Below, one piece after another: positions 21,001 to 27,000 of a stretch of DNA of 64,000 bases; positions within the stretch are counted from its first letter, which is position 1; every line of letters begins with the position of its first letter. The position numbers are program-made. Source of the DNA: an uncultured Gemmatimonadales bacterium (GTDB lineage: Bacteria; Gemmatimonadota; Gemmatimonadetes; Gemmatimonadales; Gemmatimonadaceae); assembly GCA_963851265.1 (NCBI GenBank), contig CAWKNZ010000009.1, forward strand, positions 128,001-192,000, in the 5' to 3' direction.

Positions 21001-24000
21001 GCACTCAAGGCGCTTGGCGTGCGGCTGGCCATCGACGACTTCGGCACGGGCTATTCGGCACTCAGCTATCTGCGCCAGTTTCCGTTCGACGTCCTCAAGA
21101 TCGACAAGAGCTTCGTGGACGAGGTTGCCACCCGCGGGCAGGCCGCGACGCTCGCGGCGGCGATCGTCGCGCTCGGCAACGCATTCGCCCTGCGCACGGT
21201 GGCGGAGGGCGTCGAGTCGGCCGACCAGGCCACGGCACTCGGCGAGATCGGCTGCGCGATCGCGCAAGGGTACCATTTCAGCCGACCGCTCGCGGCGGAG
21301 GCGGTGACGGCCTGGCTCGCGGCCGAGCGGGTCGCCCCCGCGCCCGACCCACTCGGCGGGGTCACCGAAACGAGGTGGGCGCGGGAGCCCGCGGGCGGGC
21401 GGGCGGCGCCGCTGCGCACCGTGGCGACGCGCGGCGAGCTGCCGTAACCGCCGGCAGCCGAGGGCGTGTCGGCGGTCGCAGGCGGGTCGACTACGCCGAG
21501 TCGGCGCGGCTGCGATCGCGCCCCGTGGGGAAGCGGCGGTCGAGCTCCCCCTTGCCGGTCCGCACCCACGCATCACGCGTCACGCGGACGATCCGCAACG
21601 GGCGCGCGGCGAGTGGGCCTAACAAATCCGGGAGGTCGCCGGCCTCCGGCACCGGCTCCACCTCGCCGGCAGTCGACAGGGCCAGCACCAGCGTCCGCCC
21701 GTCGGGCGACGACAGCAGGACGTCGGTGAGCTGCGGCCAGCGCGCACGCACCGCGCGCTCGACGGAAGCGGCGGGCACGAACCGGCCGTTCTCCAGCTTG
21801 AAGCTGTCTGCCGTGCGCCCCTCGAACGTGTAGGTGCCGTCGAACTCCCGCCTCGCGAGGTCGCCGGTGCGCACCCAGCGCCCGGGTGGCTCGACGCTGA
21901 TCCCGAGACCTCCGGCCGCGTCGGCCTCCCACACGCCGAGGCAGGCGTTCGCGCCGCGAAACGCGAGCACGTCGTCGGCGTCGAGGCGGACCTCACAGCC
22001 GACTGGGTGACCGAGCGCGCCCGCGTGCCACGCTCCCGGATCACCCATCGTGATGCCCGGCGAGGCTTCGGTCTGACCGTACCCCACGCGCAGTCGCGTG
22101 CCGCGGAGCAGATCGGCGAGTGTCGAGTCGACCGGCGCCCCACCGATCACCCCGCCGCGCAGCCGGCCTAACAGCGCGCGGCCCTCGTCGCGTTCGGCGA
22201 GCAGGCGCAAGGTGTACGGCACGGCGTGCAGGTGCGTGATCGGATGCTCGGCCGCCACGGCCAGCATGGCCGCGGCGTCGCGCCCCCCCGAGGGGTCGCG
22301 CAACAGCTCGGCGCCGGCCAGCAGCGCGGGGAGCAACTCGAGCACCAGGCCGAACGCGTGATGCCACGGCAGCACCGAGAGGACCACGGCCCCATCCATG
22401 GCCAGCAGCGGGGTGTGGCTTGCCAACACCGCTCGCACGTTGGCGTCGGAGAGCGCCACGCGCCGCGGGGCCCCAGTCGTACCACTGGTCTCGAGGAGGA
22501 ATCGCGCCTCGCGGGTCGGCCCCGAGCGTGCCGGGCGCGGGATCACGGCAACGTCGGGCGGCGTGCCCGCGCGCTCCGCGGCGACGATCGCGGCAGCCGC
22601 CGGGCGGCCTGGTGCGACCACGGCATAGCGCGCATCGACGAGGTCGAGCAGGGACGCGACGTCGGCGCTGGCCGGCGCGGGCACGAACGTCAGATCGTCC
22701 CAGAGGGCCGCGACGAGCAGCATCGCGAAGCCCGGGCCGGGCGGCAGTGCACACACGACGCGGTCGCCCGGGCCGACGCCGTGCGTCCGCCACCACGCCG
22801 TCCACCGGCGCGCACCGGCCCACAGCGAGGCGGCGGCCACGAGGTCGTCACGCGTCCACAGCAGCGGGAGCGGACGGCCGCGGAGCCGGCGGTAGAGCGC
22901 GTCGCGCCACGACGACTCCGGCGCGGCACGCTCCGGCGCGAAATCCGTGACCGCAGCATCAGGTCGCACGTCCATGCCGCGAACGTTACAACCTTAGACC
23001 GGCCGGTCCGACAGTCCGAAGCGAAGGCGCGGCGACGGGCCGAATCGGCCGCGGTCCACCCCCCGCCCCTGTTCGTCGTGATGTCATCCCTCGATGCCCC
23101 TCGGCCTGCACCCGCGAGCGCCGGCGCTCCCGACGCCCTGCACGAGATGGTCGCGAGCCTCGAGGCGCAACTCGTCTCGCTCTACGCAGAGCGCGAAGCC
23201 GAGGTCGCCGAGGCCGACACTCTGCGCGCCGCCGTCGCCAGCCTCGAAGAGCAGGCGCGCGCGTGGTACGCGAGCGTCGAGCGCCTCGGCGGTCGCACCG
23301 TCGACGAGGCCGCCGACGCGCTCGTGAGTTACGAGGCCCAGCTCGATGCGCTCTACGCCGCGGTCGACGCGACCCCCGGCGACGGCGGCAGCGCTCCCGC
23401 TTCGACGCCCGCCTGAACCGCACTGCGTTCACACCACCTCCACCATCCCGACTTCACCCATGTCCTTCGTTCCTCAGGCCGTCATCGACGGCCTCGCCGA
23501 GTTCTCGCGCTCCCAGGCCGACGCCCAGCCGTTCGGTGTCGTCCGCGTCACCGACGAGGGCATCGTCACGCTCTACAACCGCTGGGAATCCGGCCTCGCG
23601 GGCGTCGCCATCGAGACCGCCGAGGGCCGCAACTTCTTCACGCAGATCGCGCCGTGCACCAACAACCGCCTCGTGTTCGGCCGGTTCAAGGACGGCGTGC
23701 AGAAGAAGCAGCTCGACTCGGAGTTCAACTACACGTTCACGTACAAGATGAAGCCGACCAACGTCGCGCTTCGTCTCTTCCGGCACGAGCCTACGGCGAC
23801 GAACTGGGTGTTCGTCGGGCTGCGCTGAGCCGCCGCGGAAGAGCCCGGCCATGATCGCCGAACACCTCAGCGTCGCCGCGAACGTCGACCGGCTCGAAGC
23901 GCTCCTCGAGACGACGTGCAACGGGGTGCCCGCCGGCCCGGCCCGTGAGGCGCTCCTCGCGTATGCGCGGCAGAAGCGGGATGGGATGGTGGCGCTCGCC

Positions 24001-27000
24001 GCCGCGCTCCACGCGGCGGACGACGAGCCCGAACTCGTCCGCCTGCTCGCCGCGGTGTGGTTGGAGCTGCGCTGCGAGTGGGAGCGGTACAACAACGTGT
24101 CGAACTATCAGCTCTTTCATTCGGGGCACGACGCCGAGCCCCAGGTCATGGCGGCGGCCGCCACGATGTCGGGCATGCTCACGTGGATCGAGGAGGTCGT
24201 TCCCGGGCCGGCCGTCGAACTCATGACCGTCGCGACGCTCGACATGCTCGACCGCATTCGCGCGGACGTGGTGGAGCGCGCGTTGACGGCCGGCACCGCG
24301 GCCTGACCAGGCGCCTTCGTGGTAGACACCGTCAGCTACACGCCGCGCTTTGCCTGGGCGATGGTGGCCGCACCGGCCGCCACGGGGAGCGCCGTCGTCG
24401 CAACCAACGGGCCCGTAACCGGCGGGCCCGCGCAGGCGGGGCCGCCGAACGGCGCGGCGCTCGCGGAACTCGCGGCCGGGCTCGAGCGGAGCCGCGAGCG
24501 CGTGGAGACGCTGACCAACAGCGCGACCACGGTACTCTGCCTCACCTCGGTCGTGCACACGCAGCTCGCGGACGTGGGCGCGCGCGCGGCCGACGTGAGC
24601 GGCGCGGCCGCGCGCGTGGCCGAGCAGAGCCGCGCTACGGCCACCGCGGCCGCGGAGATTCGCGCCCTGGTCGATGACGCGCGCGCGGCGGTTGCGGCGC
24701 TGGCCGGTCACGCGCGCGACATCGAGCACGTGAGCACGCGCTTGAACGTGCTCGCCGTCGAGGCGCGCTTCGTCGGACTCAACGCGGCCATCGAGGCGGC
24801 GCGCGCCGGCGACGCGGGCCGAACCTTCGCGGTGGTGGCCGACAAGGTCCGCGAACTCGCCGACGGGGCATCCGACGCCGCGACGCAGATCATCGGCCGC
24901 CTCGGGCGCATCCGCGACGACGCGCTGCAGTCCGCGGCCGTGATGGAGCGCGCCGGCGTGTCGGTCGGCGCGATCGACGCGTTCACCGCCGGCGTGGCCG
25001 ACGCCGCGGCGGCGCAGGAGGCGGGCACCGCCGAGATCACGAGCAGCCTAACGCAGGTGTCGGGCGCGGTCGACGAGATCGTCCGTGCGGTAGAGGACAT
25101 CACCGAAGTCGGCATGGTGCTCGGAGACGGGACCGCCGAGAATCTCGCGCTCGCCGGCGCACTCGGCGCCGGCGCGGCGGCTTCCGATCCCGCGCCAGCG
25201 AGCGACTCGTGACCGCATCGCTCCGCGACGTCCCGCGGGCGATCGCGCCCGGTGGCGAGGGAGACGCGGGCACGACGACGGTGGACCTGGGCGGACACGT
25301 CACGCCGGCCGACATCTACGCCGTCGCCGTCCGCGGGGCGCCGCCGCGAATCGGGCCCGACGCGCGGGCTCGGATGGAGGCGTCGGCGGAATACCTGGCA
25401 CGGTGCGTCGACGAGCGGCGGCTGGTGTACGGCGTCACGACCGGCTACGGCCCGCTCGCGCGGCACCATGTCGGGCCGGAGCACGCCGCGACGCTCCAGC
25501 AGAACCTCATCTATCACCTCGCTTCGGGCGTCGGCGCGCCGCTCTCGCCGGCGCACACGCGTGCGCTGATGGCGGCGCGCGTCGCGAGCCTGGCCCGCGG
25601 CTACTCCGGCGTTGGGCGCGCGACCGCCGACCTGCTGCTCGCGTGCCTCACGCGCGGCGTCACGCCCGTTGTCCCCGAGCGGGGCACGGTGGGGGCGAGT
25701 GGTGACCTGACGCCGCTCGCCCACGTGGCGCTCGTGCTCATCGGCGAGGGGCGGGCCGCGTACCGCGGCGGCGTCCTGCCGGGGGCCGACGCGCTTCGGC
25801 TGGCGGGGCTCGCGCCGGTGGCGCTCGGGCACAAGGAGGGGCTCGCGTTGGTGAACGGCACGTCGGCGATGACGGGGATCGCCGCCGTGAACGCCGAGCG
25901 TGCGCGCCGGCTCGCGGAGCTGGTCGCGCGCCTCGCGGTGCTGCACGCCGAGGTTCTGGGGGGGCACGTCGAAGCATGGGACGCGCGCTTCGGGCGCGCG
26001 CGGCCGCACCCCGGGCAACGCGCGGCGCACGCGCGACTGCTGCGACTCGCGCGCGGGAGCGGCCGCCTAACGCCGTCGGTGCAGCCGCCGCCGCGGCTCG
26101 ACGCGCGGAGCGAGGCGACCGGACTGTTCAGCGCGCCCGAGCCGCCGCAGGACCCGTACACGATCCGGTGCGTTCCGCAGGAGCTCGGCGCCGCTCTCGA
26201 CGTGCTCGCCTTCCACGCCGGCGTGGTGGGAACGGAGCTCAACAGCGCCACCGACAATCCGCTCGTCTTCGCCGACGGCGCGGACGACCCGGATGGCGCG
26301 GTGTTGCACGGCGGCAACTTCTACGGCCAGCACGTCGCGTTCGCGAGCGACGCGCTCGCGATGGCGGTGGTCAAGCTCGCGGCCTGGAGTGAGCGGGCGC
26401 TCGCGCGGCTCACCAATCCGGCCTACAACAAGGGGTTGCCGGCGTTTCTGCACGGCGGAGCGCCGGGGCTGACGAGCGGTTTGATGGGAGCGCAGGTCAC
26501 GGCGACGGCACTCGTCGCGGAGATGCGCACCGGTGCGGTCCCTGCGTCGATCCAGACGATCCCGACGAACAACGACAATCAGGACGTCGTCACGATGGGT
26601 ACGATCGCCGCTCGCAAGGCGAGCGGGCTGCTCGACCTCGCGTGGCACGTGCTGGCGATCCACGCGATCGCCGCCGCGCAGGCGTCGGAGTGCCGGGCGC
26701 GCGAGGGCGGCGCGCGGGCGCCCGGCGACGCGGGCTTCTCCTCCGCGAGTGCCGCGCTCTGGTCGGCGGTACGCGGCGCGGTCGCACCGCTCGACACGGA
26801 CCGCCCCCTGTCCGACGACATCATGCGCCTCGCCGAGGCGCTGGAGCACGACGACGCGCTGCTCGGTGCGAGCCCACTCCTGACGTAGACCGGCGCCGGC
26901 GACGGTCGGCGCGTTCGGCGCTCGCGCCGTGCGCGATCTCCTCAATTCTTCCGCTGAGTGTCTCACCACCTCGACGTCCCGCGCCTTCCGAGCGCAGACC

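Follow-up and report, generated by a model that had tools for sequence, protein, structure and literature searches.

How single-domain photoactive yellow protein (PYP) passes on its light signal has been a question since PYP became a model photoreceptor. It is raised again by a locus in a 64,000-nucleotide stretch of DNA from an uncultured Gemmatimonadales bacterium (the window), where the gene directly downstream of pyp encodes g03519, a small helical protein whose family we refer to as g519. Both recent surveys, in the portions available, call the downstream partner of single-domain PYP unknown (2022, PMC9664959; 2025), and the survey supplements, as far as they are accessible, enter the g519 family only as 'None' or 'hypothetical'. 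Encoded next to PYP, g519 is a strong and testable candidate for the missing signalling partner.

Organization of the pyp cluster

A row of six genes had been proposed in a preliminary description of this DNA, and all six are present. A p-coumarate-CoA ligase-like AMP-binding enzyme (pCL; 21491-22975, minus strand; PF00501, E 4e-32) is divergent from the pyp row, and homologues with 46-51% identity hold the same divergent position in L007, L018, L022 and other loci. On the plus strand lie genes for a coiled-coil repeat protein (23081-23416), the 122-residue single-domain PYP (g03518; 23460-23828; E 2e-22 to 1e-19 to PDB PYPs), the 151-residue, six-helix g03519 (23851-24306), which belongs to an unannotated PYP-associated domain family, a 297-residue MCP signalling-domain protein (g03520; 24319-25212; PF00015, MCPsignal, E 8.5e-18) and an aromatic amino acid (tyrosine) ammonia-lyase for chromophore synthesis (TAL; 25209-26888; PF00221, Lyase_aromatic, E 2e-158), homologues of which occur at 60-64% identity in related cassettes. 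These five genes are separated in order by 43, 22 and 12 nt, followed by a 4-nt overlap, and the cluster holds both chromophore synthesis genes, TAL and pCL. The coiled-coil protein, previously given as 89 residues, has 111 when read from its first ATG. No Pfam family scored above cut-off for it, and an HMM of 8 positional counterparts recovered it at 55.9 bits (E 3e-19; maximum among 197 scoring shuffles, 7.1 bits); it belongs, as a short member, to a family whose genes immediately precede pyp in related cassettes.

Residues Y39, E43 and C66 of the window PYP are the equivalents of p-coumaric acid-binding Tyr42, Glu46 and Cys69 in the Halorhodospira (Hh) protein, a numbering also given by Xing et al. 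(2022, PMC9664959). They are retained in 41/41 aligned subclade PYPs, and the YNRWE and APCTNN motifs claimed for g03518 were both found. Against the TIGR02373 equivalog model the window PYP scored 98 bits, under the 143-bit cut-off; clade B PYPs are likewise marked '< cutoff' in the accessible part of Data Set S3 of Xing et al. (2022, PMC9664959). Identity to the window PYP is 55-70% for PYPs adjacent to g519 and 31-38% for non-adjacent PYPs, a group that includes the host genome's other two PYPs. In the tree, 17 g519-adjacent PYPs make up one side of a branch (support 92/81), with those of Burkholderiales nested inside. The g519 family serves one PYP subclade only, which is clade B of Xing et al. 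(2022, PMC9664959) going by the labels in the available material, where that clade is assigned to the PYPs of G. phototrophica and S. natans. Given this restriction, the Halorhodospira question stays unanswered by g519.

The g519 family and its linkage to pyp

The g03519 gene has coding-type codon bias (GC3 0.88). Pfam, NCBIfam and PDB sequence searches gave no match for the protein itself, a Pfam run on 42 members of the family (84 representatives at E<=1e-3) returned scattered single matches, and the sole match of the family profile in the PDB was the N-terminus of RseA/MucA (E 0.013-0.015). It had been stated that no relative carries a Pfam domain; this is wrong for the wider family, whose longer members have MCPsignal or CheW domains. 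The AF2 model again shows six helices (pLDDT 97.1, where 93.5 was reported before) and, as before, no PDB fold match, Foldseek giving none at E<=0.001; the best VIA Z is 9.0, a value that is uninformative for a helical bundle. The motif WLELRxxWxRxNxVxNY had been called invariant. Strict invariance in 42 sequences holds for W77 only, with E72, R79 and N81 kept in at least 90%. An identity as Hpt or CheA P1 was considered and rejected: hhalign of g519 against the N-terminus of the genome's own CheA gave a probability of 0.4%, and there is no His among the invariant or near-invariant columns.

PYP is encoded directly upstream of g519 at 13/16 named genome loci (12 from Gemmatimonadota, 4 from Pseudomonadota) and at 44/52 metagenome loci, the exceptions being mostly cut contigs; these counts overstate independence because loci of one clade are related. 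The gap between the two genes in the metagenome loci is 28-170 nt (median 92), L062 has an additional PYP fragment at the locus edge, and up to five tandem g519 copies can accompany one pyp. The earlier figure of 38 in 80 PYP loci is biased as a frequency. Among 301 Gemmatimonadota genomes PYP occurs in 19 and g519 in 5, and PYP adjoins g519 in all five; in terms of this phylum sample, g519 accompanies 5/33 PYP genes and 5/19 PYP-bearing genomes. Two MAGs, G605 and G606, contain g519 and yielded no subclade PYP, and we count them against our preferred explanation. Taken together, these data support g519 as a real family tied to PYP.

Links to chemosensory proteins

The MCPsignal domain of g03520 scores 65.2 bits (Pfam cut-off 34.6), and the Pfam search found no HAMP or sensor domain. 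The protein had been described as transmembrane-less, and hydropathy agrees that it has no clear transmembrane helix, since the Kyte-Doolittle maximum (window 19) reaches only 1.40, a borderline value, at residues 11-29. A direct tie to g519 is provided by fusion proteins. In P0020 a g519 domain (44% identity) is joined to an orthologue of the window MCP, the C-terminal part of the fusion being 53% identical to that MCP over 206 residues. In other relatives the g519 domain is the N-terminus of CheA-like P3-P4-P5 proteins of 470-520 residues. A Pfam CheW match is found in 15/22 of these long members; their profile matches P3-P5 of PDB CheA at positions 137-476 (E 7e-19), and a model of a long member matches the E. 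coli core signalling unit 6s1k_A by Foldseek (E 1.3e-18). Both P1, the Hpt domain with the phospho-accepting His, and P2 are absent from these fusions. The N-box is unconserved, and a stretch of about 45 residues, the F/G2 ATP lid, is deleted in all 10 of the 22 rows that were displayed; the host genome's two CheAs retain both features. The CheA-like fusions are predicted to be catalytically inactive, which we weigh against our preferred explanation. The host has a chemotaxis machinery of two canonical CheA together with CheW, CheR and CheD.

Adjacency of an MCP had been reported for this genome and L021 only. Such neighbours are in fact common, with an MCP or CheA-like gene within 3.5 kb at 32/52 metagenome loci. 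The 'CheW-domain protein' said to occupy the same place in other phyla is really a CheA-like P3-P4-P5 protein with its own N-terminal g519 domain. In most relatives an HDOD gene separates g519 from the MCP or CheA-like gene; the window lacks it and may therefore show a reduced or altered wiring, a further point against our preferred explanation. The PYP-to-chemotaxis connection had also been put forward as new. The fusions make the connection firmer. Part of it was in print by 2022, when PYP genes beside chemoreceptor genes were described (PMC9664959, as seen in its accessible text).

Model of the PYP-g519 complex

The complex model of PYP and g519 gave a median ipSAE of 0.65 (runs 0.64/0.75/0.65; best of 3 controls, 0.00), which is lower than the 0.81 obtained earlier and still above a mark that is reached by 116/157 solved complexes and 2/215 mismatched pairs. 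The runs agree in at least 96% of contacts, and partner pLDDT is at least 86. Modelled g519 contacts the Cys loop of PYP, with N81 and N85 of g519 placed against Cys66. The interface includes 7 of the 20 best-conserved g519 positions and its PYP side is 97% conserved within the subclade versus 80% elsewhere. The significance of these figures is modest (p 0.016 to 0.001), and they are tied to the alignments that served as input for the modelling. PYP entered the model in its apo form, and g519 sits directly on Cys66, an arrangement equally compatible with a role in maturation. From this model we infer physical binding of PYP and g519.

Discussion

We think it probable that g03519 is a PYP partner that relays the light state to a chemosensory array, with binding as predicted by the complex model. 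This is in keeping with the initial reading of g03519 as a partner docking on the chromophore face, to which linkage, the modelled Cys-loop docking and the fusions lend support. Our observations are a strict linkage of the two genes, a restriction to one PYP subclade, the fusion proteins, and homology to CheA with loss of its ATP-binding motifs; light dependence, contact between g519 and the MCP, and a motility output are what we infer. Most likely g519 is a new PYP-receiver domain, a light-signal adaptor to chemosensory arrays. In our working model, g03519 would be a stand-alone copy of this previously unnamed domain that docks on the neighbouring clade-B PYP, covering both the Cys loop that carries the chromophore and the beta4-beta5 (Met100-type) loop, reads its light state and hands that state on to the array. 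In this genome it would associate non-covalently with the sensor-less MCP, whose gene starts 12 nt further on, and that MCP would couple to the canonical CheA/CheW. In other bacteria the domain is hard-wired, either fused to an orthologous MCP or taking the place of P1-P2 at the N-terminus of a CheA-like scaffold that is predicted to be dead.

It is unlikely, in our view, that g519 is a chemosensory input or scaffold domain that binds, say, the coiled-coil or HDOD protein while PYP signals directly to the MCP, CheA-like or HDOD protein. Both proposed ligands are likewise conserved in the cassette, and a direct PYP-to-chemoreceptor relay was proposed by Xing et al. (2022, PMC9664959, available text). 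However, it is g519 that consistently neighbours pyp (gap 28-170 nt), and loci without HDOD, the window among them, retain it. The complex model also passes, with its controls at zero, and draws on PYP residues that are specific to the subclade. A little less likely still is a maturation or holding factor that caps the Cys69 loop of apo-PYP and aids or protects formation of the p-coumaroyl-CoA thioester without signalling. The position of N81/N85 against Cys66 and the presence of TAL and pCL within the same cassettes would suit such a role, but neither the fusions to MCP and CheA-like scaffolds nor as many as five tandem copies per pyp fit one in loading. Furthermore, 28/33 PYP genes in the phylum sample are without g519, and the 2025 paper, in its accessible part, describes holoPYP as the product of apoPYP and p-coumaroyl-CoA and names TAL and pCL as the enzymes. 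We regard as improbable, more so than either of these, that g519 modulates the photocycle, or sequesters PYP as an 'anti-PYP', and so adjusts how long the signalling state lasts or how available it is but does not relay it. The two proteins are oppositely charged (pI 4.6 for g519, 8.9 for PYP), and thermal reversion of photoswitches can change through a binding partner (PMC11912449, part seen), yet covalent fusions to array components would be left unexplained.

There is precedent for several elements of the adaptor reading. Rc-PBP (RCAP_rcc01067), the published PYP-binding protein of Rhodobacter capsulatus, has 142 residues (16 kDa, pI 3.9) and binds basic PYP (pI 9.4) depending on light state (bioRxiv 10.1101/2021.06.01.446672). 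Like it, g519 is a small acidic protein (151 residues) encoded beside a basic PYP. The available description nevertheless sets them apart: Rc-PBP is predicted to contain helices and a beta-sheet and lies upstream of pyp, whereas g519 is all-helical and downstream, and that text reports no link of Rc-PBP to chemotaxis proteins, to which the g519 domain is fused. Xing et al. (2022, PMC9664959) found clade-B PYP adjoining sensor-less chemoreceptors in Leptospira; the PYP clade and the proposed output, phototaxis via an MCP, are the same as here, and Data Set S3 lists HDOD and CheW neighbours, as in g519 relatives. They suggested a direct PYP-to-MCP relay after CetA/CetB, whereas here an adaptor domain would lie between the two. 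In the parts of that study available, the g519 position appears as 'None' in Data Set S3 and is undiscussed, and neither the g519 fusions nor the resemblance of the 'CheW' protein to CheA is described. Ppr (PYP-phytochrome-kinase) of Rhodocista centenaria, linked to CheW (PMC2993699, partial text), is also a PYP-containing photoreceptor tied to chemotaxis components, as proposed here; it is a multidomain kinase, whereas our single-domain PYP would be tied in via a separate adaptor domain. Profile (E 7e-19) and fold (E 1e-18) comparisons show that the long g519 proteins have P3, P4 and P5 in common with CheA; they differ in that g519, which is not an Hpt domain, occupies the place of P1-P2. In CetB/CetA, a stand-alone sensor protein binds to a transducer of the chemoreceptor type without a sensor of its own. 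Sensory rhodopsin II/HtrII follows the same logic. Unlike in these two systems, sensor and transducer here appear to be bridged by a third component, a soluble adaptor domain, free or fused, from a new family.

PYP and g519 form a concrete pair for cloning and testing, with predicted contact residues, and the natural g519 fusions suggest where the output lies. Some g519-associated PYPs are labelled clade B; in the source as available, the L. biflexa PYP, whose photocycle was studied in vitro, is linked to them by clade label only. The fusions also uncover a class of CheA-like pseudokinases, and the PYP-g519 pair could provide a small light-switchable heterodimer for optogenetics. We are evenly divided over the broader proposal that g519 is a new, portable PYP-receiver domain and the first general downstream transducer for an entire clade of single-domain PYPs, linking them to chemosensory arrays in three forms: on its own, joined to an MCP, or heading a novel class of CheA-like pseudokinases without P1/P2 and the ATP lid. 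If this is true, tandem amplification of g519, at up to five copies per pyp, would let one sensor address several outputs.

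The six-gene row and its PYP

The preliminary description had placed PYP, g519, an MCP and TAL in a six-gene row, and ORFs and database matches confirmed this row at 21491-26888 of the window, which as a whole has 73-77% G+C. The gene for a p-coumarate-CoA ligase-like enzyme (pCL, an AMP-binding ligase) is divergent on the minus strand, and the plus strand carries a 111-aa coiled-coil ORF (23081-23416), PYP (122 aa; 23460-23828), the 151-aa g03519 (23851-24306), for which, as for its domain family, we use the name g519, a 297-aa MCP signalling protein (24319-25212) and the aromatic ammonia-lyase TAL (25209-26888). 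Intervals of 43, 22 and 12 nt separate the first four of these five genes, the last two overlap by 4 nt, and a promoter/terminator scan of 22800-27200 found none. Just upstream of the row, convergent with pCL, is a gene for a GAF-GGDEF-EAL protein (19087-21447). On the other side, 69 nt past TAL and on the same strand, lies the gene for a 434-aa Acetyltransf_6 (GNAT/FemAB-like) protein (26958-28262), a gene not seen in those related cassettes that were examined.

The window PYP matches solved PYPs at E values of 2e-22 to 1e-19 and retains the equivalents of Tyr42, Glu46 and Cys69; its TIGR02373 score is 98 bits, under the 143-bit cut-off. The source genome encodes three PYPs and one g519. The other two PYPs (L002, G000 C3:181322-181660, and L001, G000 C7:481380-481703) are 37-38% identical to the window PYP and are without g519. 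A PAS-GGDEF-EAL protein gene comes after the C3 copy, and the C7 copy is flanked by pseudouridine synthase and patatin-like genes.

Identity to the window PYP is 58-70% for g519-adjacent PYPs of genomes and 55-70% for those of metagenomes (40 loci with at least 100 aa aligned, two contigs of 33-35% G+C among them); for the 26 Gemmatimonadota PYPs without adjacent g519 it is 31-38%. In a maximum-likelihood tree, from which L010, L048 and L049 had been left out beforehand (matches under 90 aa), the 17 adjacent rows, including two identical pairs, are set apart on one side of a branch supported at 92/81. Because four Burkholderiales rows are nested within this side, the tree points to transfer of the PYP-g519 cassette across phyla. 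A plasmid collection queried with PYP gave 14 records, all at most 41% identical, none of this subclade and none from Rhodobacterales. The Gemmatimonas phototrophica (G. phototrophica) and Sphaerotilus natans (S. natans) PYPs of the g519-adjacent kind are assigned to clade B in Data Set S3 of Xing et al. 2022 (PMC9664959).

The g519 family

The g519 ORF has coding-type codon bias, and g519 found no match in Pfam, NCBIfam or PDB sequences. With phmmer, 1.84 billion representatives yielded 84 proteins at E<=1e-3, of which 26 reached E<=1e-10; two matches, P0037 and P0075 (fn3/phosphatase and repeat proteins), were left out of the family as likely spurious. An alignment of 42 single-domain members gave the core motif WLELRxEWxRxNxVxNY, with W77 invariant and E72, R79, N81, S107 and E114 at least 90% conserved; Pfam found no consistent family across these 42. 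From the same alignment AF2 predicted a six-helix bundle (pLDDT 97.1, pTM 0.88), for which Foldseek found no PDB match at E<=0.001. An exhaustive structure aligner reached a best Z of 9.0, a kind of score that its documentation describes as uninformative for helical bundles, and an ESM Atlas search gave no usable match. Two identities were considered and set aside: an RseA-type anti-sigma domain, as the PDB profile matches were to RseA/MucA N-termini only (E 0.013-0.015), and Hpt/P1, for which hhalign gave a probability of 0.4% and the alignment has no conserved His.

Linkage of g519 to PYP

A genome scan with an alignment of 15 closer g519 sequences found 16 loci, 12 in Gemmatimonadota and 4 in Pseudomonadota, S. 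natans ATCC 13338 among them. In 13 of them a PYP gene on the same strand immediately precedes g519. As for the exceptions, L017 is a 2.4-kb contig from a genome with a second PYP+g519 pair elsewhere (L107), and L013 and L021 come from MAGs where non-subclade PYPs alone were found. In these two loci (L013:~5860-6300, L021:1412-1890) g519, without adjacent pyp, sits beside a DUF456 gene, with DHDPS on the other side in L013; one of the non-subclade PYPs of these MAGs is interrupted by three stops (G605 C115).

A metagenome scan with more divergent members found 52 loci (41 distinct at 97% nucleotide identity), 44 of which have PYP directly upstream, 28-170 nt away (median 92). Of the remainder, L062 has a 26-aa PYP fragment at its edge, six end at the contig edge and L101 is without PYP in its 734 nt upstream. 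Among 301 evenly sampled Gemmatimonadota genomes PYP was found in 19 (33 matches) and g519 in 5, in all five within 0.8 kb of PYP; these five represent three genera and are not independent. Of 301 Burkholderiales genomes, the search found g519 in the seed genome and in none of the remaining 300. From these genome, metagenome and phylum-sample counts, presence of g519 implies PYP, and the majority of PYPs are g519-free. The g519 frequency of 38 in 80 PYP loci reported earlier mirrors the choice of loci by similarity to the window PYP.

Composition of the cassette

Pfam analysis of neighbours together with HMM/BLAST maps revealed a recurring set, which opens with a divergent pCL and a coiled-coil repeat protein and continues with PYP and between one and five copies of g519. 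An HDOD/HD protein is a further member, as is either a sensor-less MCP or a protein of 470-520 aa that ends in a CheW-like part; TAL and/or pCL follow. An MCP or long CheW-like-ended protein lies within 3.5 kb in 32/52 metagenome loci, or 32/39 given enough flank, and the HDOD/HD protein is present in 29/52. In most cassettes the HDOD/HD gene separates g519 from the MCP or CheA-like gene (e.g. L007:6452-7471, L022:6308-7333). It is absent from the window; a 42%-identical homologue is at G000 C2:1741261-1742058. The window coiled-coil ORF (23081-23416) is a member of the upstream family, scoring 55.9 bits (E 3e-19) where shuffles reach at most 7.1 bits. This family, which has no Pfam match above cut-off, always directly precedes pyp in the cassettes and shows a repeated SLEAQL..LYE-type motif; the window copy is short beside relatives of 150-261 aa. 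On contigs of 33-35% G+C (L105:2624-5306, and L106) an MCP(HAMP), a 143-aa ORF, PYP and g519 (26-28% identity) occur together, so that the cassette extends to a low-GC lineage of a very different kind; DUF1574 and MBOAT genes are further neighbours in L105.

Fusions and tandem copies

The 470-520-aa proteins carry a g519 domain at the N-terminus. Their alignment profile matched CheA P3-P4-P5 in the PDB (E 7e-19), and an AF2 model of one (pLDDT 86.6) matched CheA of the E. coli core signalling unit (Foldseek E 1.3e-18); Pfam found CheW in 15/22 and a weak HATPase_c in 3/22. In an alignment with the two canonical CheAs of the genome, the N-box is missing from the 10 fusions shown, as is a stretch of ~45 residues holding the F and G2 boxes, and none has an Hpt domain. 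Because these elements are absent, the long proteins are probably CheA-like scaffolds lacking ATP binding and autophosphorylation, and likely pseudokinase array components. Examples are L008:6689-8158, L009:2622-4130 (minus strand), L015:7360-8808, L016:7336-8784 and L019:7386-8834. The layout of the class is g519 domain, P3, P4 (N-box and F/G2 ATP lid missing) and P5, Hpt-less; g519 occupies the P1-P2 position yet is no Hpt domain itself.

In the 454-aa P0020, a g519 domain (44% identical to g03519) is followed by an MCP region 53% identical to the window MCP over 206 aa. Judged by its sequence, P0020 is a fusion of the counterparts of the window's two adjacent genes. Proteins with two or three tandem g519 domains also exist. 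At L096:3813-6053, L097:1481-3730 and L098:1032-3268, one pyp is followed by five successive g519 domains, of which the first four are free-standing or tandem copies and the fifth belongs to a CheA-like fusion.

Predicted PYP-g519 complex and role of g519

Modelling of the complex (26 alignment rows for PYP, 42 for g519) supports PYP-g519 binding. Three runs gave ipSAE values of 0.64, 0.75 and 0.65 (median 0.65; best of three controls 0.00); the ipSAE mark was reached by 116/157 solved complexes and 2/215 mismatched pairs, counts that are only rough with user alignments. The runs share at least 96% of contacts, with partner pLDDT of at least 86. The predicted PYP contacts (61-62, 66, 68-69, 71, 89-92, 94-99 and 101) span the Cys loop and the loop with the Met100 equivalent, and those of g519 include W77, N81, N85, Y86 and S107. 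Conservation tests, which depend on alignments also fed to the model, showed that: (i) of the 20 g519 positions with the highest conservation, 7 are within the interface; (ii) mean g519 entropy is 2.14 inside it vs 2.55 outside (one-sided p 0.016); (iii) PYP interface residues are 97% conserved in the subclade vs 80% for the rest (p 0.001); and (iv) PYP interface residues are more subclade-specific (p 0.004). The two proteins encoded at 23460-24306 are oppositely charged (PYP pI 8.9, g519 pI 4.6), a parallel to the published pair Rc-PYP (pI 9.4) and PBP (pI 3.9). Precedent for a PYP binder comes from Rc-PBP of Rhodobacter capsulatus, as described in the available part of bioRxiv 10.1101/2021.06.01.446672.

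Xing et al. 2022 (PMC9664959) describe sensor-less chemoreceptors as neighbours of clade-B PYPs and propose a direct relay; the position of g519 is entered as 'None' in their table. 'HDOD' occurs 18 times in their Data Set S3, and the rows shown place it near other-clade PYPs too (Massilia, Thiorhodospira). 'Hypothetical', HDOD and CheW do not occur in the main text of Dohmen et al. 2025 as far as it was accessible (PMC12826048); in its Data Set S2 the G. phototrophica operon includes hypothetical proteins of 151 aa and 491 aa, the latter noted as 51% identical to CheW. A literature search with light coverage of subscription journals found no paper joining 'photoactive yellow protein' with HDOD; for PYP with CheW/CheA it gave the Ppr-CheW paper (PMC2993699).

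A loading factor or chaperone for PYP is another role that g519 might fill. We consider this less likely because neither the fusions of g519 nor its tandem copies fit such a role, and the majority of PYPs manage without g519. Furthermore, published work has p-coumaroyl-CoA and apoPYP giving holo-PYP, and the enzymes it names are TAL and pCL (PMC12826048).

We favor the reading that g519 is a PYP-receiver domain, which would link the light state of clade-B PYPs to chemosensory arrays. In the source genome the signal would pass through the MCP encoded beside g519, canonical Che proteins being at hand in this genome, and in other bacteria the link may be made by covalent fusion of the g519 domain.
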